Below, in pieces: positions 4,840 to 22,038 of a stretch of 64,000 nt of DNA. The notes beneath the pieces were generated by a model. It was given only the letters and a program-made list of their open reading frames with translations, was not told the DNA's origin and ran no database searches. The first letter of the stretch is position 1; each line of letters opens with the position of its first letter. The position numbers and the translations under genes were made by a program. Origin of the DNA: an uncultured Akkermansia sp. (GTDB lineage Bacteria > Verrucomicrobiota > Kiritimatiellia > RFP12 > JAAYNR01); NCBI GenBank assembly GCA_964506575.1, contig CAZDLY010000003.1, forward strand, positions 41,240 to 105,239, written 5' to 3'.

Positions 4840-7335
<2,496 letters not shown>

Positions 7336-7343
7336 GGCGTCCC

Positions 7344-10058
<2,715 letters not shown>

Positions 10059-10065
10059 CGACGCC

Positions 10066-10308
10066 ATGAAAGAGATTACCACGCACTATGCCAAGACCCA
10101 CTTGTCTGGGATCCTCAGGGAGGTTCGGGACGGCGAAACCGTCATCATTCTCCAAGGTCGCACGCCCGTGGGAAAACTGATCGCCGCCTCCACCACCCGG
10201 CCACCGCGCGGCCCGAAGGTTGGCCGTCCGACCTCCGCGCCCGTCCAACTCGCGCCAGACGCGTTTGCGCCGCTTTCCGTGGCGGAACTGAAAGCCTGGG
10301 GACTATGA
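10066..10308 (+). CDS. Type II antitoxin, Phd/YefM family
   Basis: 80 aa (MKEITTHYAKTHLSGILREVRDGETVIILQGRTPVGKLI...) with typical Phd/YefM length and N-terminal pattern. Its stop overlaps the toxin start (ATGA). Confidence 0.8.
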   Translation: MKEITTHYAKTHLSGILREVRDGETVIILQGRTPVGKLIAASTTRPPRGPKVGRPTSAPVQLAPDAFAPLSVAELKAWGL

Positions 10309-10691
10309 GAGTACTCCTCGACACCTGCACCTTCATCTGGTTGTGCGCGGAGCCCTCCCGCCTGTCGGCCAGCGTCACGCAGATCCTCGGCCGCCGGGAC
10401 ACGCAGCCGGTTCTCAGTCATGTGTCGATCTTGGAGATCACGCTCAAATGGACCGCAGGCAAGATCATCCTGCCCACGCCGCCCCGCCAGTGGATCGGCG
10501 AACAGGCCGCCATCTGGCAGATGGCGCTGCTGCCGATCACGCCCGACGATATCTACCGCGCCAGTGAACTTCCAACGTTGCACGCCGACCCTTTTGATCG
10601 CCTCCTCGTGGCGACCGCCATCGGCCGCCGCCTCAGCCTGCTGACGCCTGACGAGTGGATGAAACGCTACCCGGTGAGTTGCCTCTGGTAA
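10305..10691 (+). CDS. vapC: Type II toxin VapC (PIN domain ribonuclease)
   Basis: 128 aa with PIN-domain hallmarks (LLDTCTFIWL near the N-terminus; HADPFDRLLVATA near the C-terminus). There is a 4-nt overlap with the upstream antitoxin. Confidence 0.85.
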   Translation: MRVLLDTCTFIWLCAEPSRLSASVTQILGRRDTQPVLSHVSILEITLKWTAGKIILPTPPRQWIGEQAAIWQMALLPITPDDIYRASELPTLHADPFDRLLVATAIGRRLSLLTPDEWMKRYPVSCLW

Positions 10692-10709
10692 CCACCGTTC
10701 AGCGGCGGA

Positions 10710-12413
10710 CTACAGGTCGCCGACGTTGACGACGATGTCGTCATTCGGGCCTTTGGCGCTGGTCGCGCCGCCCGTGGTGATGCCGAACTCATCCAGGATC
10801 GCGGCGGCCTGGGTGGTCGGCAGGTTGCGGTAATAGACCATCAGTTGCAGCGCGGCGAGGCAGGTGTCCATCACCGGGCGGTCTCCATGCAGATCATCGT
10901 TCACCCAGTGTCCGATATCCTGGGCCTGGCCGAGGTGGTTGGTGTAGACACCCTTCTCGATCATCAGCGCCTTCAGATAGTTGGGTTTCATCTTGGCGTT
11001 CCAGGTCTCCCACAGCTTGCCGCCTTCGTGAAATTTGGCCTGCGTGGCGTAATAATAATAATACTGGGTGCAGCTGCTGATGACGACGCCCGCCTTGGCG
11101 GTCCCCTCGGGTACGCGAACATCCTGGTTGTTGGCGCCCGGCTTGACGATGACCCCCCCCTTGACCAGATCTTCATCCTTGGCGGTGATCACCGGAATCC
11201 ACGGCTCCATCACGGCCAGCGTGGCGCGAACCTCGGTTCCCTTGCCCGCCCCGAGAAGCTGGAGGCAGAGCGTACCGACCGCCGATAGCCCGCTGGCGCC
11301 TGGCTTGTCATAGTTGAACCCGCCGCCGCTCATGTAGTTGCACTGGAACCCCTTGATCGCCTTCTTGAGCGCCGTTTCGAGGGCCGGTTTGTTGGTGTAG
11401 GCATTGGACAAGGAGGCGGCCTTGAGCGCCTGCGCGCACCATCCCATGTAGGAGACGTCATTGCGTCCGGTGGGCTTGGCTTTATAGTCCCAGCCGCCCG
11501 ACGGGTTCTGGCCTTTAATCAGCGCGTCGATCGCCTTCCCGGCCGCCTCCTTGACATCCGGGTTCATGGTCATGCCATAGGCCTCGCACAGCGCGTAGGC
11601 GGCCATCGGCAGCGAATATTCGTTGCCATCGCTATTGACGAAGTGACCGTCGGGCCTCTGCGTGCTGATGAGATAGTCGATGGCTTTCTTGACCGTCTCG
11701 CCGAATTCGGGGCTGCTGGCGCCGGGTTTCTCGCCATGCGCCAGGAACGAAAGGAGGGCCAGCGCCGTCATGGCGGGCTTGACCTTGTTCCATGAACCGT
11801 CGGCATTCTGGTTCTTCTTGAGCCAGCGGAGGGCGGCCATCACCGCCGCCTCGGTCTTGGGGTCGCCGCCGAACTTGGTCATCAACTTGCCTCGCATGCC
11901 TGGATCCCGCGTCGTGCCGAAGATGCCCTGCATGATCACGGGGCTTTTGATCTGCAGAACCGCATCCACTGAGGCCGGCTGCTGGGTGATGGGCGCCGCG
12001 TGGGTGGTGGTGGTCGGCGTGTCGACCGGCACCGCCACATCGGTTTCGATCCGGATGTCGGTTTCGATGGGTTCCTGTTCGATCGGAGGTTCCTTTTCCT
12101 TCTCCAACTCCTGGAGCTCCTTGGTCTCCAGAATCTCGACCTTGACCTCGTAGGTGCTGCTGCCCGTGCCGGTGGCCAGAACGGCCATGAGGACAATCGA
12201 GACGAGCGGGATCAGCACCGCGCAGGCCGGCGCGGCGAGGCGCTGCGCCTCGATGCGGGCCGACTTGAACTCGCGGCTGTCGCGGGGGCAGGCAAACCCG
12301 CTGATCATCTTCCTGATCCGGGTGAGGTAGCCGTCCTCATGGAACAGGTTGTTGATCTCCTGAAGCGCCTGATCCTCCTTGGCGAGAATCGCATCTGCGA
12401 TGGGATCGTTCAT
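10710..12413 (-). CDS. Paralog A: membrane-anchored protein (about 60-aa cytoplasmic N-term, one TM helix, acidic/Thr-rich linker) with a C-terminal prenyltransferase/squalene-cyclase-repeat-like alpha/alpha-toroid domain
   Basis: 567 aa from the ATG at 12413 (strong GGAGGTGG RBS). The ORF track start at 12581 adds 56 aa that read through a relic exbD fragment. QW-type repeats are present (KNQNADGSW, TQRPDGHF, KGQNPSGGWDY, NYMSGGGFNY). The C-terminal 1.35 kb is nucleotide-identical to paralog C. Confidence 0.8.
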   Translation of the reverse strand: MNDPIADAILAKEDQALQEINNLFHEDGYLTRIRKMISGFACPRDSREFKSARIEAQRLAAPACAVLIPLVSIVLMAVLATGTGSSTYEVKVEILETKELQELEKEKEPPIEQEPIETDIRIETDVAVPVDTPTTTTHAAPITQQPASVDAVLQIKSPVIMQGIFGTTRDPGMRGKLMTKFGGDPKTEAAVMAALRWLKKNQNADGSWNKVKPAMTALALLSFLAHGEKPGASSPEFGETVKKAIDYLISTQRPDGHFVNSDGNEYSLPMAAYALCEAYGMTMNPDVKEAAGKAIDALIKGQNPSGGWDYKAKPTGRNDVSYMGWCAQALKAASLSNAYTNKPALETALKKAIKGFQCNYMSGGGFNYDKPGASGLSAVGTLCLQLLGAGKGTEVRATLAVMEPWIPVITAKDEDLVKGGVIVKPGANNQDVRVPEGTAKAGVVISSCTQYYYYYATQAKFHEGGKLWETWNAKMKPNYLKALMIEKGVYTNHLGQAQDIGHWVNDDLHGDRPVMDTCLAALQLMVYYRNLPTTQAAAILDEFGITTGGATSAKGPNDDIVVNVGDL

Positions 12414-12451
12414 AGCCACCTCCTCTGGACCCGGTCGGGGGGCGTCCACGT

Positions 12452-12527
12452 TCACGTGCCGAAGATCGCCAGATTCATCGTGTCCAGTGTATGACAAATA
12501 TCCAACGTTTGCACTAAATATTTGTGT
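12452..12527 (-). pseudogene. Relic 3' end of an exbD gene carried along with the duplication that created paralog A
   Basis: The minus strand encodes ..KYLVQTLDICHTLDTMNLAIFGT-stop, versus the genuine ExbD C-terminus KYLVQTLDICHKLQLTNLAIFSM-stop at 16137-16210. It sits at the same spacing (about 40 nt) from the downstream gene start, and no upstream ExbD body is present. Confidence 0.55.
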
Positions 12528-12737
12528 TCTCTCACCCGCGGGGGCGCATCCCCGTTTCACTGACTTGCGCATGAAAAGCAAGGTAGGGCGGGGCCGCCGG
12601 ACCCGCCGCTGGCTTGCGGCGCTGCGACGAGCACGCTCGCCGCAGAAGACGGCGGGTCCGGCGGCCCCGCCCTATCTTCGCCGCTGTGATCCATTGGTCG
12701 CAAGGTCAGTGAAACGGGGATGCGCCCCACCCGCGGC
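12528..12737. repeat. Nested palindrome at the duplication junction (30-bp arms CCGCGGGGGCGCATCCCCGTTTCACTGAC/reverse complement, with an inner GGCCGCCGGACCCGCCG/CGGCGGGTCCGGCGGCC pair)
   Basis: Outer arms at about 12531-12560 and 12700-12733, inner arms at about 12592-12608 and 12650-12666. It lies between the paralog B stop and the exbD relic and is a likely strong hairpin/terminator. Confidence 0.5.
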
Positions 12738-14369
12738 CTAGAGGTTTTCAATGTTGACCGGGATGTCGTCGTTCCGGGTCGCCGCGGCGGGACCGGCCTC
12801 GGCGGCGTCCGGCTTCACCGCGAGTGCGCGGGTGGTCGGCAGATTGCGGTAAGGGACCATGAGCTGGATCGCGGCGAGGCAGGTGTCCATCACCGGGCGG
12901 TCGGTGTTGGCGTCGGTGTTCACCCACCAGCCGATCTCCTGGGGCCGGCCCTGCGGGTCGGTGTAGGCGCCCTTCTCGATCTTCTGGGCCCGGACATAGA
13001 GCCGCCACAGCTTGTCCCACCACGAGGTCCATCGCTTGCCGCGGATGCCGGTGTGGCACTTCGCCTGGGTGGCGTAGTAGTAATAGTACTGGATGTTGCC
13101 GCCAAGCCCCTGGACGTCGCCCGTCAGGAAGGCGGGCGTCCACGCGTCCATCAGGGCGAGCGTCGCGCGCGTCTCGGATTCGCCGCCCGCGCCCAGAAGC
13201 TGCAGGCAGAGCACCCCTGCGGCTGAGAGGCCGCCGGCGCCGGGCTTGTCATAGCCGAACCCCCCGCCGGACTGGTAGTTCTGGCGGAACCCACGCACCG
13301 CCTTCTTCATGGCGGCGGCGAGGGCCGGCTTGTCGCGGTAGGCGTTGGCCAGATGCGCGGCCTTGAGCGCCTGGGCGCACCAGCTCATGACCGAGGTGTC
13401 GTTGCGTTCCGACCCCTTCATGTTGTAATCCCAGCCGCCCGAGGAGTTCTGCCCCGTGACCAGCACGTGGATCGCCCGGTCGGCGGCATCCTTGATGTCG
13501 GGGTTCTGAATCATGCAGTATGCCTCGCTCAGCGCATAGGCAGCGATCGGCAGCGAGTACTCATGGGCGTCGCTGTATTTGAAGCGGCCGTCGGCCTCCT
13601 GCGCGCTCATCAGGAATTGAATCCCTCGCTGAACCGTCTCGCCGAATTCGGGGCTGGTTGCGGGCGTCTCGCTGTGCGACAGGAAGGTGAGCACGGCCAG
13701 ACCCGTCATGGCCACCTTGTTCTGCGGCCAGGAGCCGTCGGCCTGCTGGTTCTTCTTGAGCCAGCGTAGGGCGCGCATCACCGCCCGTTCGGATTCCGTG
13801 ACGTCGATCGGCCCGTTGGTTGTGGATGGCGGAGGATCGTGGATCCAAGGTTTGTTGGTCGGAATATACACCCATATGTTGGTCTTGGGTCCCGGATTTT
13901 TGGGAGGCGGCGGCGGGGGATCGCCATGCGACGGCCCTTCCGGCGGCGGGATCGGTATCGGCGGCTCATCAGAAGGCCCGATGATCGGGCCGACATCCTT
14001 CGGCGTCGGCTGGAGGGGCTGGGGCGGCGTCGGCACAGGATCCAGAATGGGCTGTTCGGGAGGCGTGGGCTCCAGCGTGACCGTCAGCCCCGTGGGTTGA
14101 GGCGCGATCACATCGGCGGCCAGCAGGACGATCAGGACGATGGCGATCAGCGGAATGAGGACCGCGCAGAGGGGCGCGGCGAGGCGTTGCGCCTCGAGGC
14201 GCGCCTCCTTGAACTCCCGCGAGTCCCGCGGGCAGCCAAACCCCCGGATCATCTTCCTGATCCGGGTGTAATAGCCATCCTCGCGGAAGCGCTCGTCGAT
14301 CTCGGCGAGCGCCTGATCCTCCCTGGCGCGGATCGCGTCGGGGTCGTTGTCGCCCGCAGGGTCAGGCAT
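12738..14369 (-). CDS. Paralog B: membrane-anchored protein with a Pro-rich periplasmic linker and a prenyltransferase/squalene-cyclase-repeat-like toroid domain
   Basis: 543 aa, ATG at 14369 with a GGAGGA RBS. Same N-terminal module (REDGYYTRIRKMIRGFGCPRDSREFKEARLEAQRLAAP + TM), then a PTPPEQPILDPVPTPPQPLQPTPK...PPPPPPKNPGPK linker, then a divergent copy of the QW-repeat domain. Only 23 nt separate it from paralog C. Confidence 0.8.
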   Translation of the reverse strand: MPDPAGDNDPDAIRAREDQALAEIDERFREDGYYTRIRKMIRGFGCPRDSREFKEARLEAQRLAAPLCAVLIPLIAIVLIVLLAADVIAPQPTGLTVTLEPTPPEQPILDPVPTPPQPLQPTPKDVGPIIGPSDEPPIPIPPPEGPSHGDPPPPPPKNPGPKTNIWVYIPTNKPWIHDPPPSTTNGPIDVTESERAVMRALRWLKKNQQADGSWPQNKVAMTGLAVLTFLSHSETPATSPEFGETVQRGIQFLMSAQEADGRFKYSDAHEYSLPIAAYALSEAYCMIQNPDIKDAADRAIHVLVTGQNSSGGWDYNMKGSERNDTSVMSWCAQALKAAHLANAYRDKPALAAAMKKAVRGFRQNYQSGGGFGYDKPGAGGLSAAGVLCLQLLGAGGESETRATLALMDAWTPAFLTGDVQGLGGNIQYYYYYATQAKCHTGIRGKRWTSWWDKLWRLYVRAQKIEKGAYTDPQGRPQEIGWWVNTDANTDRPVMDTCLAAIQLMVPYRNLPTTRALAVKPDAAEAGPAAATRNDDIPVNIENL

Positions 14370-14392
14370 CGCGTCCTCCGTTCAGCCGGGGA

Positions 14393-16096
14393 CTACAGGT
14401 CGCCGACGTTGACGACGATGTCGTCATTCGGGCCTTTGGCGCTGGTCGCGCCGCCCGTGGTGATGCCGAACTCATCCAGGATCGCGGCGGCCTGGGTGGT
14501 CGGCAGGTTGCGGTAATAGACCATCAGTTGCAGCGCGGCGAGGCAGGTGTCCATCACCGGGCGGTCTCCATGCAGATCATCGTTCACCCAGTGTCCGATA
14601 TCCTGGGCCTGGCCGAGGTGGTTGGTGTAGACACCCTTCTCGATCATCAGCGCCTTCAGATAGTTGGGTTTCATCTTGGCGTTCCAGGTCTCCCACAGCT
14701 TGCCGCCTTCGTGAAATTTGGCCTGCGTGGCGTAATAATAATAATACTGGGTGCAGCTGCTGATGACGACGCCCGCCTTGGCGGTCCCCTCGGGTACGCG
14801 AACATCCTGGTTGTTGGCGCCCGGCTTGACGATGACCCCCCCCTTGACCAGATCTTCATCCTTGGCGGTGATCACCGGAATCCACGGCTCCATCACGGCC
14901 AGCGTGGCGCGAACCTCGGTTCCCTTGCCCGCCCCGAGAAGCTGGAGGCAGAGCGTACCGACCGCCGATAGCCCGCTGGCGCCTGGCTTGTCATAGTTGA
15001 ACCCGCCGCCGCTCATGTAGTTGCACTGGAACCCCTTGATCGCCTTCTTGAGCGCCGTTTCGAGGGCCGGTTTGTTGGTGTAGGCATTGGACAAGGAGGC
15101 GGCCTTGAGCGCCTGCGCGCACCATCCCATGTAGGAGACGTCATTGCGTCCGGTGGGCTTGGCTTTATAGTCCCAGCCGCCCGACGGGTTCTGGCCTTTA
15201 ATCAGCGCGTCGATCGCCTTCCCGGCCGCCTCCTTGACATCCGGGTTCATGGTCATGCCATAGGCCTCGCACAGCGCGTAGGCGGCCATCGGCAGCGAAT
15301 ATTCGTTGCCATCGCTATTGACGAAGTGACCGTCGGGCCTCTGCGTGCTGATGAGATAGTCGATGGCTTTCTTGACCGTCTCGCCGAATTCGGGGCTGCT
15401 GGCGCCGGGTTTCTCGCCATGCGCCAGGAACGAAAGGAGGGCCAGCGCCGTCATGGCGGGCTTGACCTTGTTCCATGAACCGTCGGCATTCTGGTTCTTC
15501 TTGAGCCAGCGGAGGGCGGCCATCACCGCCGCCTCGGTCTTGGGGTCGCCGCCGAACTTATCCCTCAACTTGCCTCGCATGCCCGGATCCCGCGTCGAGC
15601 CGAAGATGTTGCGCATGATCACGGGGCTTTTGACCTGCAGCACCGTATCCACGGAGGCCGGCTGCTGGGTGATGGGCGCTGCGGTGGTGGTGGTGATCGG
15701 CGTGTCAATTGGCACGGTCACATCGGTTTCGATCTGAATGTCGGTCTCGATGGGGTCCGTTTCGATCAGCTTTTCCTCTTCCTGTTCCAGCTCCTTGACC
15801 TCCTTGGTCTCCAGAATCTTGACCTCGACCTCGTAGGTGTTGCTGATCTTGCCGGTGGCCAGAACGGCCATGAGCACAATCGAAACCAGCGGGATCATCA
15901 CCGCACAGGCCGGTGCCGCGAGGCGTTGAACCTCGATGCGGGCCGACTTGAACTCACGGCTGTCGCGCGGGCAGCCAAACCCGCTGATCATTTTCCTGAT
16001 CCGGGTGAAGTAGCTGTCCTCGTTGAACAGATCGTTGATCTCTTTAAGCGCTTGATCCTCTTTGGCGAGGATTTCGTCTTTGATCGGATCGTTCAT
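14393..16096 (-). CDS. Paralog C: membrane-anchored toroid-domain protein, first gene after exbD in the ExbB-ExbD-ExbD operon
   Basis: 567 aa, ATG at 16096 with a GAAGGAGG RBS, 40 nt downstream of the exbD stop. The N-terminal 210 aa are about 85% identical to paralog A and the rest is 100% identical. Confidence 0.85.
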   Translation of the reverse strand: MNDPIKDEILAKEDQALKEINDLFNEDSYFTRIRKMISGFGCPRDSREFKSARIEVQRLAAPACAVMIPLVSIVLMAVLATGKISNTYEVEVKILETKEVKELEQEEEKLIETDPIETDIQIETDVTVPIDTPITTTTAAPITQQPASVDTVLQVKSPVIMRNIFGSTRDPGMRGKLRDKFGGDPKTEAAVMAALRWLKKNQNADGSWNKVKPAMTALALLSFLAHGEKPGASSPEFGETVKKAIDYLISTQRPDGHFVNSDGNEYSLPMAAYALCEAYGMTMNPDVKEAAGKAIDALIKGQNPSGGWDYKAKPTGRNDVSYMGWCAQALKAASLSNAYTNKPALETALKKAIKGFQCNYMSGGGFNYDKPGASGLSAVGTLCLQLLGAGKGTEVRATLAVMEPWIPVITAKDEDLVKGGVIVKPGANNQDVRVPEGTAKAGVVISSCTQYYYYYATQAKFHEGGKLWETWNAKMKPNYLKALMIEKGVYTNHLGQAQDIGHWVNDDLHGDRPVMDTCLAALQLMVYYRNLPTTQAAAILDEFGITTGGATSAKGPNDDIVVNVGDL

Positions 16097-16136
16097 GGTG
16101 ACCTCCTTCGAACCCGAACAGAGGACCTGTTTGGGC

Positions 16137-16544
16137 TCACATACTGAAGATTGCCAGATTCGTTAGTTGTAGTTTATGACAAATATCCAAAGTTTGCACT
16201 AAATATTTGTGGGGCGAGTCTCCGGTGCAGCGGAGCACCACGCTGACCTTCTTGTCATATTCAGCGATGCTGGTCAGTCGTCGCTCCAAAAGCGCCTTGG
16301 AGACCGGGGCGCCGCGGAAGATAAAGCCCGTTTTGTTGATCTCGATGTTCAACACATTGGGTTGCACCGTGGGCGAGGCGTTGGGATCCGCCGCTGGCGC
16401 GGAAGCGGAGAGCATGGAGTAGATGTCCTCCTGCTTGATGGTGACGATGAAGAAGATCAACAACTGGAACACGACGTCGATCATCGGCGTCATTTCAAGC
16501 TGGGGCTGGTCGTTGGTGATGCGTCGCTGTCTTTTGGCTTTCAT
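16137..16544 (-). CDS. exbD: Biopolymer transport protein ExbD/TolR
   Basis: 135 aa with an MTPMIDVVFQLLIFF N-terminal TM motif typical of the ExbD/TolR family, and an AAGGAGG RBS. Confidence 0.9.
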   Translation of the reverse strand: MKAKRQRRITNDQPQLEMTPMIDVVFQLLIFFIVTIKQEDIYSMLSASAPAADPNASPTVQPNVLNIEINKTGFIFRGAPVSKALLERRLTSIAEYDKKVSVVLRCTGDSPHKYLVQTLDICHKLQLTNLAIFSM

Positions 16545-16547
16545 GCA

Positions 16548-17006
16548 TCAGCCTCCTTTCTTCTTCCCCGTGTGATCAAAGATCGCCATAAACGACAGCT
16601 TCCAGATGCCGGCCTCGGTGCAGATCGACATGACGCGCCTGACTTCCCGGTGCGGCACCCGGTGATCGGCCCGGATGAGGACAGGGAAGTTGGTGTTGCG
16701 GTTTTTGTTGACGCGCCTCGCCAGAATGTCCCGCAATATCGACTCGCTCACCACTGCGTTGTTGATGGAGATGCGGTAGCCGCCAGCGAAGGGTAATCTG
16801 CGCCCCAGCTCGATGATCAGCGTTTGCGGGGGCATCTCCTTGACGATCGCGCCGTGCCGGCCATCCTCCAAGACGATGTCCTCGTACACGTTGTCGGTCA
16901 TCTTCATCGTGACGACGAAAAAGATGATCAACTGGAACACGACGTCGATCATCGGCGTCATGTTCAGATCGCAGCCGGCGGATCGGACTTTTCTAACTTT
17001 TCCCAT
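16548..17006 (-). CDS. exbD: Biopolymer transport protein ExbD/TolR
   Basis: 152 aa with the MTPMIDVVFQLIIFF motif and a GAGGTG RBS, 7 nt after the exbB stop. Confidence 0.9.
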   Translation of the reverse strand: MGKVRKVRSAGCDLNMTPMIDVVFQLIIFFVVTMKMTDNVYEDIVLEDGRHGAIVKEMPPQTLIIELGRRLPFAGGYRISINNAVVSESILRDILARRVNKNRNTNFPVLIRADHRVPHREVRRVMSICTEAGIWKLSFMAIFDHTGKKKGG

Positions 17007-17015
17007 CTCCGCACC

Positions 17016-17870
17016 TCAATCGTTCACGACCTCGACGTTGCGCAGATCCTTGATCAGCTCCATGGTCATGGCCTCCATGCGGAGGACGAGCTTGTTGGCA
17101 TTGTTGCGGATGCCATAGTAGAAGGTGATGGCCGGGATGGCGACGACCAAGCCGCCGGCGGTCGTCCACAGCGCCTGGGCAATGGCGAGGGCCAGCGCGC
17201 CGACGTCGGGGGCCGCCGTGGCGATGTTTCCGAAGGCCATGATCATGCCCTGCACCGTGCCGAGCAGCCCGAGCATCGGCGCGAGATTGGCGCAGACCGA
17301 GATCCAGGTGAGGCGCTGCATCAGCCGTTCCGTCTCGAGATCGGCCGCCGTGCCGACGCTCTCCTGGATGATGTCGTAGCCCTCCTCCACGTGCGAGAAA
17401 CCGGCCGACAGGATGTTGGCCATCGCGCCGGGCTCGCTCTCGCAGGCTTTCAGGGCCTTGAGGACATCCCCCTCGGCCATGGCGCTCTTGACCTGGTCGA
17501 TCAACGTGCCGGGCAGCATCTTATGGGGGCGCACGAGAATCGAGCAGTCCACGATGAAGTAGATGGCCGCCGCGCCGCTTCCGAACAAAGCAACCCACAG
17601 CAGGAAGCCCAGGATTCCCGATCCCATCATGATGTCGTAGAAATTGGTGGCGCTCCGCTTTCTTGCTGCGGTGACCGGTGCGCCGCTCGAGGCATCGACG
17701 ATCGGCGCGCTTTCCAGCGCCGGGCCGGCCGCCGGGGCCGGCGCCGGGGCAACCGCCGGGGCCGCCGCTGGGGCAGCCGCCGGGGCCGCCGCCGCGCCAT
17801 CCTGGGCCAGAAGCGCCGGAGCGCCCAGCAGCGTCGCAAGCATCACCGCATTCATCACTAGTTTCTTCAT
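17016..17870 (-). CDS. exbB: MotA/TolQ/ExbB proton-channel family protein with an N-terminal signal peptide and an Ala/Pro-rich periplasmic extension
   Basis: 284 aa. The C-terminal half matches the ExbB/TolQ core (LGLLGTVQGMIMAFGNIA....ALWTTAGGLVVAIPAITFYY). The N-terminus is MKKLVMNAVMLATLLGAPALLAQ followed by AAAPAAAPAVAPAPAPAAG. AGAGGA RBS. Confidence 0.9.
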   Translation of the reverse strand: MKKLVMNAVMLATLLGAPALLAQDGAAAAPAAAPAAAPAVAPAPAPAAGPALESAPIVDASSGAPVTAARKRSATNFYDIMMGSGILGFLLWVALFGSGAAAIYFIVDCSILVRPHKMLPGTLIDQVKSAMAEGDVLKALKACESEPGAMANILSAGFSHVEEGYDIIQESVGTAADLETERLMQRLTWISVCANLAPMLGLLGTVQGMIMAFGNIATAAPDVGALALAIAQALWTTAGGLVVAIPAITFYYGIRNNANKLVLRMEAMTMELIKDLRNVEVVND

Positions 17871-18016: not shown

Positions 18017-18823
18017 TCAGGGCTTGTTGGCCCATTCGCTGCCCGGGAATTCCTTGCGGATCGTCTCGCGGCGCTCCTGCGCGCGGGCTGTCATGCCCAG
18101 CTTCTCCAGGCTTTTGGCGGCCTTGTAGTTCGCTTCGGGCTGGACCTCCTTGACGCTGCGGTAGAGCGTGACCACCCGCAGGTAGCCGTCCTTCAGCGCC
18201 CGGGTGTGGTACTCCTGCGTGTCGCCGCCCTTCAGAATCAGGTCGCCGCGGAGGATGAGCGCGGTCGCCGAGGCCAGGCGATTGCCGCTTTTCACGGCCT
18301 GCCCCAGCAGATCGTCGAGTTTCGAGGTGCGGTTCTCGCGGAGCAGAATGCGCCAGTACACCGTGGCCAGATCGCCGATATAGGCGGCATCGGGACGGGC
18401 GGCGGTGATGCGCTCGATCGCCCGGATCGCCTCGCCGCCGTTGTTCGCCTGCAGATAGGCCTCCGCCAGCCAGCGGGCCGCCTCCTCGTCGTGCTGCAGC
18501 ATGAAATAGTCGGTGACGATCTTGTTCAGCGGCCCGATGGCCTCCGCGCCCTTGTTCTCGCGGACGGCCTTGATCGCCGGATCCAGCTCCCGGGGCCTGA
18601 CCACCGACAATTTCACCACATCGGCCAGCGCGATGGTGAGGTCAAACCCCTTGTCGGTGAGCACGTAGGACTTGCTGCTGCTCATCCAGCGCAACATCCC
18701 GGACCGCGGGCCGCTTTTCAGCGTGATGGTCCCCTGAACCTGCGCCCGGGACTCCGGGGCCGTCGACAACACGGCGAGCGCGGCGATGATCAGCGCGCAG
18801 CCACGCAATTGCATCTGTTTCAT
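18017..18823 (-). CDS. Secreted TPR-like protein (signal peptide)
   Basis: 268 aa from the ATG at 18823 (AAGGAG RBS 9 nt upstream), N-terminus MKQMQLRGCALIIAALAVLSTAPESRAQ. It lies 26 nt after the upstream TPR gene and 146 nt before exbB. Confidence 0.6.
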   Translation of the reverse strand: MKQMQLRGCALIIAALAVLSTAPESRAQVQGTITLKSGPRSGMLRWMSSSKSYVLTDKGFDLTIALADVVKLSVVRPRELDPAIKAVRENKGAEAIGPLNKIVTDYFMLQHDEEAARWLAEAYLQANNGGEAIRAIERITAARPDAAYIGDLATVYWRILLRENRTSKLDDLLGQAVKSGNRLASATALILRGDLILKGGDTQEYHTRALKDGYLRVVTLYRSVKEVQPEANYKAAKSLEKLGMTARAQERRETIRKEFPGSEWANKP

Positions 18824-18849
18824 GTTGGGCACTCCTTAAATCCTATCCC

Positions 18850-21800
18850 TTATTTATTGGACGCCAGCTCGATGTTCGCCTGATTCAGCCACGTTCGAAC
18901 CTGAGGCGCGTTGGGGCTGCTGGCAAAAGCGGCCAGATACTTCGCGCACGCATCGGCGGCTCCCTGGAACTTCTTGTGCTCCAGCTCAAGCGGGATGCTC
19001 AGCAGATAGGCCTGTTCGAGCACGGGGTCGGAAACGGCGCTCCCGGGAGGAGTCGCATAGATGAGCTGCTTGAAGGCCACGATCGCCTGGCCGCGGGTGA
19101 TGCCGGCCTGCTCATTGAGGCCCAAGGCTTTTTCGGCATTCAGCTTGCGGATCATCGTCCGGCCGACCTGAATATCGAGCGCCATCATGTCCTTGTTTTC
19201 TTTGCGGTAGGCGCGGACGAACTTGAACGCCTCCACGGCGCGGGTGAACAGTTTCTGCCGCCGGCCGTTGTCCTTCTCGGTCTCACCCTCGGCGCTGGCC
19301 GCGTCGGCGAGCATCAGGTAGGCATCGACCACGAGCGCCGAATTGGTGTAGGTCGCGACAAACGTGTCGAGTTCCGCGCGCGCCTCGGCGTATTTCTTCA
19401 TGCCCACGAGCGCCTGGGTCCGGCCCAGGCGCGCCTGCGCCTGCATCGCGGGATCCCGGGTCGCGGCGAGCACCCGGGCGAACCCCTGCAGCGCGCTGTC
19501 GCTTTCGCCCGCATCCACCAGCGCGCGCGCCGCCGCGAGGAGCTGGTAATCGGGGTAGACGTCGGCGCCCGGGCCCGCGAACATCTCCTTGTATTTGGCG
19601 ACCGCCTCGCTGCGCAGCCCCATCTCCATCAGGCTGGCGGCGAGCATCGGCACCGAGCTGCGGGCCTCCTCGGAAGCGGGGTAGTCCTGGCGCAACCGGG
19701 CAAAAGCCCCCTGCGCCTTTTCGCTCTCCTGGAGGACGGTGTAAATCGTGCCGACCCGGATCAGGGCATGGGGCGCATACGGCGACTGGGGAAACTCCTT
19801 CACAAAGGCCAGATAGGTCTCGATCACCTGGGGCCGGAGCTTGGCCACCGTCTCGGCGGGCGCAACGACCTGGGACAGGCAGGCGGCCCTCTGCAGGATG
19901 GCCTGCTGGCGGATCAGCACCGCCTGATTCGTGTCGATGGCGACGGTGGCTGGTATGGCGGCGAGGTCTTTCAACACCTGGCTGAACGCGAGGGCGGCCT
20001 GGATCAACTGCTCCGACCCCGCGATGCGCTCGACGTCGTTCGTGGCGGCATGCACGCGCGCCAGCGCAATCGTGCGGCTGGCCTGCGCGATGCGGGAGCG
20101 GGCCGACGTAATAGCCAGGCCGGGCTTCCCGGCCTGGAGCAGATGGGCCATGTAGGTGGCGAGGGTGGCGAGCTCGTTGGTGTAGTTTTGCCGCTGGCTG
20201 TGGAGGGCGGCGATCCGGCTCAGCGTCTCGCCATAGTAGGCCGACGCGGGATAGGCCTCGACCAGGCGGTTGTAATAGGCGAGCGCCCCGGCGGCGTCTC
20301 CGCCTTCGGCGGCCTGCGCGCCGAAGATCATCAGCTTCAGCGGCGCATCGGGATGACCGGGGAAATGGAGGAAGAAGAGGTCATAGGCCTGCTTGCGCTT
20401 GTCGGCCATCTGTTTTTCGCCCATCAGATCGGCCAGCCGCTCCACCTCGCTGCCCGCCTCCAGGGCCTGGGGCGACAGGGAGAACCGCTCGGCGAGATGC
20501 GCGGTGATCGTGACGGCGAGCAGGTCCTCGTAGCCGTCCTCGCCCCGCGACTCGAGGCAGGCCCTGGCCAGCTCGCCCAGGGCGGGCACGGACTCGGCCG
20601 TCTCCGGGAAGTGATTCAGAACCACGAGATACACCGGAATGCTCGCCGCAAACTGATTGTTGGCGAAGAGCTGGCGGGCCTCCTGAAACTGCTTGCGCCG
20701 CATCCGGTCATAATCCTCGGGCGTGAACTCGGGCTTGAGCTCCACCTTGAAGCGATCCTGGATGAAGGCGCGTATCCGCTGCTCGCGTTCGCCCGCTTCC
20801 ATCGCCCATTGGCAGTCGGGGAATTTGCCGATGACGTTGACCAGGTGCTGGTAGGCGCCGTTGGGCTTGCGCTTGCCGTCGGTGCCGCGCTCGCCGAGCA
20901 GCAGGGTCTTGATCAGTTCGTTGTCGCCGGCGGGGTCCTTGGCGATCTTCATCGCCTCGTCCTCGAGCATGACGGCGATGAGGAAGCGGCACTGGGCCAT
21001 GGGGCTCAGCCGGACGAGGCCGGTGGCCCCCTCGTCCCGCTCCTGGGCGACCAGCGCATCGTGGATCTGCTGCAGCACGTCCCGGTGCTCATCGATGAGC
21101 GACTGCGCCTTCGCGGTCTCGCCCCTCAAGACCAGACTGTGCGCCCGGGTGACGATCGCCTTGCCGAACCACATGTCCTGATCCCACAGCAGCTGGCTCG
21201 CCAGCTTGTCGGCCTCGGCGAGGAGCGCGACCTTCGCGGCCTTGACGGTCTCGGCTTCGGCCACCTTGACGCACAATTCGGCCGTGTCGGACTGCACCTG
21301 GCGCAACGCCTCGCCCGGCAGCTTCACCTGCAACAGCCGCCGGTAGGCGTCGAGCGCCCGTTTCTCCTGCCGCACGGCCAGCAGCATTTGCGGATATTTG
21401 TAGGCGCTGTCGAGATAGAACGACTCCACCTCGGGCGTGGGCTGCGGAAACCGCTTGAAGAACCCATCGTACAGTCCGAACGCCTCTTCGCTGCGGCCGA
21501 AGGCGTAGAAGCCATCGGCCAGCGCCAGCTTCATCACCCACGCCTCGGCGCCGTCGGGAGTGGGGTGGCGGGCGATCAGATCCCGGACTTTTTCGAACTC
21601 GCCCTGCGAGAGCATGCCGCGCAATTCCAGGATTTTCAGCGTGATCGCGGCGTCGGGATACCGCTTCTTGAGATCCTCGATCACCTTCGCCGCAAAATCG
21701 GGCATCCGCAGATCATCCTGCAACTGCCGGATATACTGCGTCTCCTGGGCGATGAACGCCTCTTTCTCTTTTGCGGGGTCGCCGGTCTGCGCCGACGCCG

Positions 21801-21873
21801 AAAAAGCCAGTAACGCCGCCGTGCCGGCCAGCGCCCCCCAGCCACCCACCGATGTGCGCAGGAATGCATTCAT
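18850..21873 (-). CDS. Secreted tetratricopeptide-repeat protein (about 1007 aa)
   Basis: Start taken at the ATG at 21873 (MNAFLRTSVGGWGALAGTAALLAFSASAQ signal peptide, AAAGGGGGG RBS). Helical-repeat composition throughout. The antisense ORF 18976..21813 is an artifact. Confidence 0.75.
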   Translation of the reverse strand: MNAFLRTSVGGWGALAGTAALLAFSASAQTGDPAKEKEAFIAQETQYIRQLQDDLRMPDFAAKVIEDLKKRYPDAAITLKILELRGMLSQGEFEKVRDLIARHPTPDGAEAWVMKLALADGFYAFGRSEEAFGLYDGFFKRFPQPTPEVESFYLDSAYKYPQMLLAVRQEKRALDAYRRLLQVKLPGEALRQVQSDTAELCVKVAEAETVKAAKVALLAEADKLASQLLWDQDMWFGKAIVTRAHSLVLRGETAKAQSLIDEHRDVLQQIHDALVAQERDEGATGLVRLSPMAQCRFLIAVMLEDEAMKIAKDPAGDNELIKTLLLGERGTDGKRKPNGAYQHLVNVIGKFPDCQWAMEAGEREQRIRAFIQDRFKVELKPEFTPEDYDRMRRKQFQEARQLFANNQFAASIPVYLVVLNHFPETAESVPALGELARACLESRGEDGYEDLLAVTITAHLAERFSLSPQALEAGSEVERLADLMGEKQMADKRKQAYDLFFLHFPGHPDAPLKLMIFGAQAAEGGDAAGALAYYNRLVEAYPASAYYGETLSRIAALHSQRQNYTNELATLATYMAHLLQAGKPGLAITSARSRIAQASRTIALARVHAATNDVERIAGSEQLIQAALAFSQVLKDLAAIPATVAIDTNQAVLIRQQAILQRAACLSQVVAPAETVAKLRPQVIETYLAFVKEFPQSPYAPHALIRVGTIYTVLQESEKAQGAFARLRQDYPASEEARSSVPMLAASLMEMGLRSEAVAKYKEMFAGPGADVYPDYQLLAAARALVDAGESDSALQGFARVLAATRDPAMQAQARLGRTQALVGMKKYAEARAELDTFVATYTNSALVVDAYLMLADAASAEGETEKDNGRRQKLFTRAVEAFKFVRAYRKENKDMMALDIQVGRTMIRKLNAEKALGLNEQAGITRGQAIVAFKQLIYATPPGSAVSDPVLEQAYLLSIPLELEHKKFQGAADACAKYLAAFASSPNAPQVRTWLNQANIELASNK

Positions 21874-22038
21874 AAGCGCCCCCCTTTTACACCAAATCAT
21901 CCGCGAGGGTCAATCTGATTTATTGCCGTTGCCGGAATTTTTTGAAGGGCCCTCTTTTTCTTGTTGCATGATCCGATGGTTTTGCGCTACCTTTAAAACC
22001 GACTCGACGTGTTTTGATTACAGAAACGTGAGGAAGCT

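Follow-up and report, generated by a model that had tools for sequence, protein, structure and literature searches.

We describe a locus in a 64,000-nucleotide (nt) stretch of DNA from an uncultured Akkermansia sp. of the Kiritimatiellia (assembly GCA_964506575.1, contig CAZDLY010000003.1, positions 41,240 to 105,239; hereafter the window). It carries three paralogous genes, A, B and C, for predicted periplasmic toroid proteins next to exbB-exbD-exbD. Paralogs A and C are identical over 1,170 nt in the part that encodes the toroid domain and clearly diverged in the part that encodes the N-terminal anchor and linker. We consider it likely that an older, lineage-specific segmental duplication was followed by recent interlocus gene conversion that homogenised the 1.17-kb toroid-coding part.

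Paralogs A and C share an exact toroid-coding tract

Self-alignment of the locus showed that A and C match without interruption over 1,170 nt at a constant offset of 3683 nt (positions in Table 1). An earlier note on this DNA had given the identity as running from 10693 to ~12050 (~1.35 kb); the long exact repeat was recovered, and its extent turned out to be overstated by ~180 nt. The edge towards the 5' part of the genes was as sharp as the note had said, passing from 100% to ~85% identity at 11876/11877. The first mismatches beyond it fall at 11877-11879 and 11881, that is, four in 5 nt (MT vs RD codons). At the opposite end, 3' of the tract, mismatches occur at 10694, 10704 and 10706. When the copies were compared in 50-nt sliding windows, they agreed at 50/50 positions in the tract, at 39-46/50 in the upstream coding sequence and at 41/50 in an exbD relic further upstream, and similarity was random from 12526/12527. 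The two copies lie ~3.7 kb apart in direct orientation with the diverged paralog B between them. Two antisense open reading frames (10845-11288 and 14528-14971) are identical, as had been reported; this follows trivially from their position within the repeat, opposite the coding strand of GC-rich genes.

On its 5' side, the tract ends at the linker/toroid boundary. The tract starts at residue 180 and the modelled toroid spans residues 171-540, in agreement with the proposal that the homogenised part is the toroid domain. Over codons 1-179, 76 of the 537 nt are mismatched between A and C (85.8% identity), close to the ~85% that had been estimated for the N-terminal 210 codons; the diverged part is thus 179 codons long. 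Altogether, the diverged 5' flank of the tract comprises 650 nt at 14-17% divergence.

We next compared synonymous (dS) and non-synonymous (dN) divergence. Codons 1-179 gave dS 0.33, dN 0.11 and dN/dS 0.35, with a proportion of differing synonymous sites (pS) of 0.26, and the cytoplasmic segment gave dS 0.58 and dN/dS 0.13. Codons 180-567 had zero differences at ~268 synonymous and ~896 non-synonymous sites. Given a pS of 0.26, the absence of synonymous differences at ~268 sites has P ~1e-36, and 1,170 identical sites have P ~1e-78 given the 14.2% divergence of the 5' part. Purifying selection was therefore rejected as the cause of the A/C identity, because the synonymous sites are identical too.

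The distances to orthologs at related loci (designated L with a number) change with the same boundary. In the toroid-coding part, A and C are 100% identical, the nearest ortholog (L084) reaches 87%, and L004 and L002 reach 80-82%. Over the N-terminal part, the identity of C is 97.7% to L004/L002 and 85.8% to A. This discordance between paralogs and orthologs is the classical sequence signature of gene conversion. Conversion involving B was not seen in the window and four relatives, where identity reached at most ~87% per 60-nt window; the longest exact match between B and C is 33 nt. In the ortholog alignment, the first paralog of L007 has an apparent B-like motif. That B, at ~70% identity, shows no conversion would fit a minimum of homology required for recombination.

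Paralog A lies on a lineage-specific insertion

Upstream of A, the earlier note had recognised the remains of an exbD 3' end. Indeed, 75 nt align in frame with the end of exbD2, with 62/75 positions identical (83%), and translate as (H)KYLVQTLDICHTLDTMNLAIFGT followed by a stop codon. The proposed homology ~100 nt upstream of the start codons holds for this relic, and the spacer between relic and gene is poorly conserved (58%). The relic carries non-conservative changes at positions that are invariant in functional ExbD2 C-termini (final SM to GT, and L to T), which indicates a period of decay. A/C homology stops abruptly at 12526/12527. The copied unit, 1.83 kb in length, consists of the last 75 nt of exbD2, the spacer, C and ~15 nt of the C-B spacer; together with ~0.2 kb of palindrome it forms an insertion of ~2.04 kb. 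Comparison of the junctions (12733-12737 and 10692-10699) showed the inserted DNA to be bordered by TAGGCCG, which follows B, and by GTGGTTA, which lies at the vapC stop.

The closest sampled genomes, L004 (a Kiritimatiellia metagenome-assembled genome, MAG), L007, L084 and L086, all have the order exbB-exbD-exbD-first paralog-B, and none of the four has a third copy. L086 shows the empty site: the B stop is followed by 6 nt (TGTGGG), a truncated vapC remnant and then gyrB-gyrA. Since the relatives lack the third copy and L086 shows an empty site, the palindrome, the relic and A constitute a lineage-specific insertion. Junctions and empty-site relatives together bear out the view that the ancestral duplication took the exbD 3' end and the paralog as one unit. 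In L086 (5310-5510), vapC is reduced to its 3' third right behind the B stop, and phd has been lost; the pair, which is intact in the window, has decayed in this relative.

The motif CTGAACGG occurs both in the 3' flank of A (TCCGCCGCTGAACGG) and in the resident C-B spacer; other lineages carry CCGAAAGG in this place. Such a pattern speaks for duplication within the lineage and against import from a distant donor. Furthermore, comparison with orthologous spacers showed that the flank of A has the ancestral base at two positions where the resident C-B spacer is derived. The duplicate is therefore older than the identical tract.

It appears very improbable that A was acquired horizontally, through integration behind B of a fragment of a related lineage with the end of exbD and the first paralog, and that conversion with C homogenised it in part at a later time. 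In favour of such an origin, the N-terminal part of A and the relic are roughly equidistant from all known first-position orthologs (81-87%); the third copy occurs in no sampled relative, and the junction palindrome has relatives in other genomes. However, the 3' flank of A carries the lineage-specific CTGAACGG of the resident spacer, and the N-terminus of A is slightly closer to the group of window C and L004 (86%) than to L007, L084, L086 and L087 (81-82%). Donor-like sequence was found neither in the homolog searches nor, among the matches listed, in a metagenome scan with protein A, which returned at least two loci.

A sister strain differs in the extent of homogenisation

An independent assembly of a sister strain is contained in JGI metagenome 3300045131, on contigs L001 (60 kb) and L003 (58 kb). 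L003 runs from exbB through B and ends in the inner hairpin of the palindrome; L001 starts in the inner hairpin and continues through the relic, A and vapC to gyrB. A 76-nt overlap of the contigs lies in this hairpin (L003 13433-13508 and L001 1-76, window ~12590-12665). The three paralogs, the relic and both palindrome halves are reproduced in this assembly. As a side observation, it was the palindrome, and not the 1.17-kb repeat, that interrupted the short-read assembly.

The JGI strain is 100% identical to the window across kilobases of flank. Its C differs from window C at 2 nt (14824 and 14786), and its A differs from window A at 30 nt, all of which lie within the tract, in patches at 11829-11778 (6 nt) and 11043-10787 (24 nt). 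In both patches, window A, window C and JGI C agree. Comparison with six outgroup orthologs showed that JGI A has several states found in no ortholog in the first patch and mostly the state common to all six in the second. Between A and C of the JGI strain, a 734-nt stretch contains 2 differences, against 14% divergence in the N-terminus, and the overall toroid identity is ~97%. Because two patches of JGI A are still distinct from C, homogenisation is recent and strain-variable, and the earlier description of gene conversion as ongoing agrees with this. On the simplest reading of these sequences, the old toroid of A was mostly replaced in the common ancestor of the strains, and the window strain then overwrote the residual patches with C. 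The last conversion step in the window would most simply be C to A.

A collapsed or duplicated contig was excluded as the cause of the repeat by the unique diverged flanks and the independent JGI assembly. We also considered whether the perfect identity arose when assembly or polishing propagated C-type sequence into A, in which case the true A may resemble JGI A; this seems distinctly unlikely. It would account for the 30 A-specific differences within the tract of a strain that is otherwise identical over kilobases of flank, and such differences form bubbles between long common stretches, which assemblers often mis-thread. Yet two 567-aa proteins (P0124 and P0125) on one 111,755-nt NCBI contig match A and C in alignment, and a mere duplication of a contig is excluded because the junctions are unique and the flanks diverged. 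Moreover, the 734 nt with 2 differences in the JGI strain, against 14% in the N-terminal part, provide a signal that is independent of the assembly of the window. Where paralogs in such MAGs contain identical segments, these may be genuine, but they need to be checked at the level of reads.

Recombination between lineages shapes the operon

The locus also bears traces of exchange with other lineages. Window and JGI strain differ at ~30 of 137 nt (~22%) in a patch of exbD2 (16373-16236). L002 alternates between ~100% and ~83% identity to the window. The block from exbB to the N-terminus of C is 94-100% identical to L004, whereas the TPR genes reach 88-90% and the B N-terminus 82%. Judged from these identity profiles, recombination with diverged alleles is frequent and shapes the entire operon. 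Similar patches between window and JGI strain were observed in exbB (17100-17547) and in B (13413-13701). The first paralogs of L007 (8001-9683) and L084 (359-2071) are 95% identical in the N-terminal part and 79% in the toroid, and window C and its L004 counterpart (8001-9689) are 98% and 80% identical, respectively. This suggests that recombination recurs near the linker/toroid boundary across the family, and trees of toroid genes mislead unless the modules are analysed separately.

Such exchange allows a different history without any conversion between A and C, which we regard as unlikely: the whole unit was duplicated recently, and the 5' part of C (exbD2 3' end, spacer and 179 codons) was later replaced from an L004/L002-like lineage, so that the relic and N-terminus of A would preserve the native allele. 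This history would account for the 97.7-100% identity of C codons 1-179 and the exbD2 3' end to L004/L002 beside lower values in the flanks, including the C toroid at 80%, and for the stop of this high-identity stretch near the A/C identity boundary. The 86% identity of the A N-terminus to L004, which is near background divergence, and the common recombination patches between strains would also fit. However, the 3' end of the unit has old differences at which A is ancestral in both cases, which is unexpected beside 0 changes in 1,170 nt. Moreover, the patches of JGI A are more readily explained as remnants of an old A sequence than as two recent imports, and the changes in the relic at invariant ExbD2 positions indicate a period of decay. 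We therefore favour an older duplication followed by gene conversion.

Some observations weigh against this preference or limit it. The L004-like stretch of C (97-100% identity to L004/L002) ends within ~50 nt of the A/C boundary, which would fit an earlier overwrite of C by A and makes the direction of transfer ambiguous; ortholog distances leave it so because inter-lineage recombination scrambles the signal. Frequent recombination between lineages at the locus could explain part of the pattern. Furthermore, the diverged 3' flank of the tract is thin, with homology continuing for the last 15-19 nt with 2-4 mismatches, and the perfect A/C identity might be partly exaggerated by repeat resolution or polishing.

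A nested palindrome marks the upstream junction

The insertion is bounded upstream by a nested palindrome, which the earlier note had described at 12528-12737 as 30-bp arms 130 nt apart plus an inner 17-bp pair. A nested palindrome is present and located where the similarity ends, as claimed: homology stops at 12526/12527, and the palindrome fills the stretch from there to the B stop codon. Its anatomy, however, is different. The outer arms are 24 nt long and perfect (12541-12564 and 12705-12728), with an imperfect extension to 12529-12743, and the inner arms are 29 nt long at 97% (12580-12608 and 12650-12678) and are accompanied by a small central hairpin. The predicted RNA fold has a free energy of -164.6 kcal/mol (z = -12 vs shuffles). 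Rfam returned no family for the palindrome, just far sub-threshold microRNA/VA-like hairpin matches, and a T-run is absent after it. Neither a target-site duplication nor a transposase association was seen at the palindrome. A scan for consensus promoters and terminators gave no match at the palindrome or relic and a few promoter-like matches inside the repeated coding tract.

Further copies of the palindrome arms were absent from the 64-kb window, and in ~1 Mb of related loci, related motifs were found in L009 and L086 only. The outer-arm motif AAGTCAGTGAAACGGGGATGCGCCC has a 26-nt exact match in L009 (10314-10348), a Lentisphaerales MAG and order-level relative whose paralogs are ~50% identical in protein. 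This copy forms a 10-bp-stem hairpin downstream of a B-type paralog, and L009 also has a neighbouring GC-rich hairpin with 30-nt arms starting GGTAGGGC, like the inner arm of the window. L086 has a similar single copy of the arm motif (5523-5547), flanked by the vapC remnant and gyrB. From these occurrences, the palindrome may belong to a conserved or dispersed family of palindromic elements at rearrangement points, rather than being filler of the duplication.

Proposed history of the locus

The following sequence of events would account for these observations. The ancestral locus would have had the order exbB-exbD1-exbD2-C-B, followed by convergent vapC-phd and by gyrB-gyrA. A 1.83-kb segment would have been copied between the B stop and the vapC stop, with a ~210-nt palindromic element at the upstream junction, to give paralog A. 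A and C would then have diverged to dS ~0.3-0.6 in the N-terminal part, with purifying selection on the cytoplasmic/transmembrane module and relaxed constraint on the linker. At A/C identities of at least 86%, RecA-type homologous recombination could have supported repeated non-reciprocal copying, i.e., interlocus gene conversion. The latest event or events would have made the entire toroid-coding 1,170 nt identical by transfer of C into A.

A more far-reaching interpretation, which we hold to be improbable, is that the same periplasmic toroid is kept on two distinct anchor/linker modules, so that one ExbBD motor would serve two couplings. Modules would be exchanged as cassettes, and the duplication would have been mediated by the palindrome, acting as a mobile or recombinogenic element. 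This idea is based on the N-terminal modules, which are under purifying selection (dN/dS 0.13) and yet kept distinct. If it were true, domain-limited homogenisation would be more than a mechanical by-product.

Gene content of the locus

The features of the locus are summarised in Table 1. In the window, gyrB adjoins vapC/phd, and the order exbB-exbD-exbD-paralogs is kept in L003, L004, L007, L086 and L087. The start codon of A was assigned to the ATG at 12413, which follows GGAGG; in the ortholog alignment, all orthologs begin with MNDP. A TTG at 12581 was rejected as the start, since the resulting 623-aa frame is merely open across the relic and part of the palindrome. Gene callers could mis-annotate A from this TTG, as the longest open reading frame is 10710-12581. 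Within the 5' region of exbB (17718-17802), five tandem 12-nt repeats (CGCCGGGGCCGC-like) were observed, which encode an Ala/Pro-rich stretch after a signal-like N-terminus.

Table 1. Features of the toroid paralog locus (positions in the window)
Feature	Position	Strand	Description
TPR protein genes (two)	18850-21900 and 18017-18832	minus	
exbB/tolQ-like gene	17016-17870	minus	Pfam MotA_ExbB; same operon as exbD1
exbD1	16548-17006	minus	Pfam ExbD
exbD2	16137-16544	minus	Pfam ExbD, E = 1.9e-19; last 75 nt (16137-16211) are the putative source of the relic
Paralog C, 567 aa	14393-16096	minus	First paralog directly downstream of exbD2; putative source locus of the duplication
Identical tract in C	14390-15559	minus	Exact match to 10707-11876
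Paralog B, 543 aa	12738-14369	minus	~70% nt identity to A/C; apparently outside conversion
Nested palindrome	12527-12743	.	Between B stop codon and relic; upstream junction of the insertion
exbD2 3'-end relic	12452-12526	minus	Last 24 codons and stop; non-functional fragment
Spacer upstream of A	12414-12451	minus	GGAGG ribosome-binding site; 58% identical to the exbD2-C spacer
Paralog A, 567 aa	10710-12413	minus	ATG with ribosome-binding site; Pfam SQHop_cyclase_C/N above cut-off; this lineage only
5' part of A, codons 1-179	11877-12413	minus	85.8% identity to C; putatively unconverted
Identical tract in A	10707-11876	minus	Codons 180-567, stop and 3 further nt; putatively converted segment
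Diverged 3' end of duplicated unit	10692-10706	minus	Copy of the C-B spacer; abuts the vapC stop codon
phd/vapC toxin-antitoxin pair	10066-10691	plus	Pfam PIN and PhdYeFM; convergent with A; downstream boundary of the insertion

The toroid protein family

All three paralogs matched Pfam SQHop_cyclase_C/N above the gathering score, and a PDB sequence match to squalene-hopene cyclase (E = 3e-10) covered residues 239-313 (~75 residues). The curated cyclase models were missed, with 29.5 bits vs a cut-off of 431 for TIGR01507 and 32.7 vs 322.7 for TIGR01787. C was modelled by AlphaFold (AF2) from a 62-sequence alignment. The model has N-terminal helices, a transmembrane helix at 47-81, a disordered linker at 84-170 and an (alpha/alpha) toroid at 171-540 (pLDDT > 90). 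Foldseek with this model retrieved only generic (alpha/alpha)6 barrels, namely prenyltransferase beta subunits and terpene cyclases and, with equally good matches, GH76 mannanases, epimerases and the complement thioester-containing domain; these indicate fold-level similarity only. Residues 317-321, a candidate equivalent of the cyclase catalytic DxDD motif, have the family consensus RDDTS and read RNDVS or RNDTS in the window paralogs.

An insertion of ~28 residues (DLVKGGVIVKPGANNQDVRVPEGTAKAG) is present in the toroid of A and C at residues ~414-445 (10980-11070 and 14660-14750). It occurs just in A/C of the window and JGI strain and in the L084/P0002 lineage, is absent in L004/L002 and other orthologs, and was modelled with low confidence as a beta-hairpin excursion.

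Homologs of the paralogs are abundant in Kiritimatiellia/Lentisphaerae MAGs. Altogether, >900 reached E <= 1e-10 among 8,000 candidates scored. L007 and L028 (CAMBQN010000005.1 and CAMBQV010000128.1) are titled 'Akkermansia muciniphila', and their operon has 88-96% nt identity to the window; these labels look wrong, the operon being of the Kiritimatiellia/Lentisphaerae type. A literature search for an ExbBD-toroid system returned nothing relevant. The locus thus draws attention to an uncharacterised, widespread PVC-group family of TonB-like-anchored (alpha/alpha) toroid proteins encoded after exbB-exbD-exbD.

Comparison with known systems

The paralogs resemble TonB in that their genes lie directly downstream of exbB-exbD-exbD and in their predicted architecture of a short cytoplasmic N-terminus, a single transmembrane helix, a disordered Pro/Glu/Thr-rich linker and a folded periplasmic C-domain. 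Unlike TonB, with its C-terminal domain of ~90 residues, they have an (alpha/alpha) toroid of ~370 residues, and no TonB family (TonB_C / TonB_2) was among the Pfam matches at E <= 0.01. By sequence, they are TonB-like in layout and outside the TonB family. With class II terpene cyclases and prenyltransferase beta subunits they share the SQHop_cyclase Pfam matches and the predicted (alpha/alpha)6 barrel fold. Unlike class II terpene cyclases, they have one toroid instead of two domains, score at least 10-fold under the NCBIfam cut-offs and are predicted to be periplasmic.

The palindrome resembles REP/MITE-like elements in several ways: it is an intergenic hairpin that is long, nested and rich in GC, it lies at a rearrangement junction, and its arm motif recurs exactly (26 nt) in L009 and similarly in L086. 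It differs from them in being single-copy in 64 kb and represented by few copies in ~1 Mb of related loci.

Among bacterial paralogs, gene conversion and concerted evolution are familiar from tufA/tufB and the rRNA operons. Gene conversion between bacterial paralogs is described as well known, with rRNA operons as an example (PMC6002687), and interlocus gene conversion is described for the PE/PPE and other repeat genes of Mycobacterium tuberculosis (PMC12046097, PMC13061034). As in known cases of interlocus conversion, the A/C identity tract is embedded in older, diverged homology, A and C are closer to each other than to orthologs inside the tract only, and the extent of the tract is strain-variable. 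The need for residual identity would likewise be reflected in conversion of A/C at 86% and not of B at 70%. Unlike in those cases, the tract corresponds to a single structural domain, a third, diverged paralog separates the two directly oriented copies, and the genes belong to a family of uncultured Kiritimatiellia/Lentisphaerae that had not been characterised before. The evolutionary mechanism is textbook knowledge, and what is new is the gene family in which conversion occurs. With two near-identical strains that differ in the homogenised extent, the locus would offer a clean natural case of bacterial interlocus conversion in progress.

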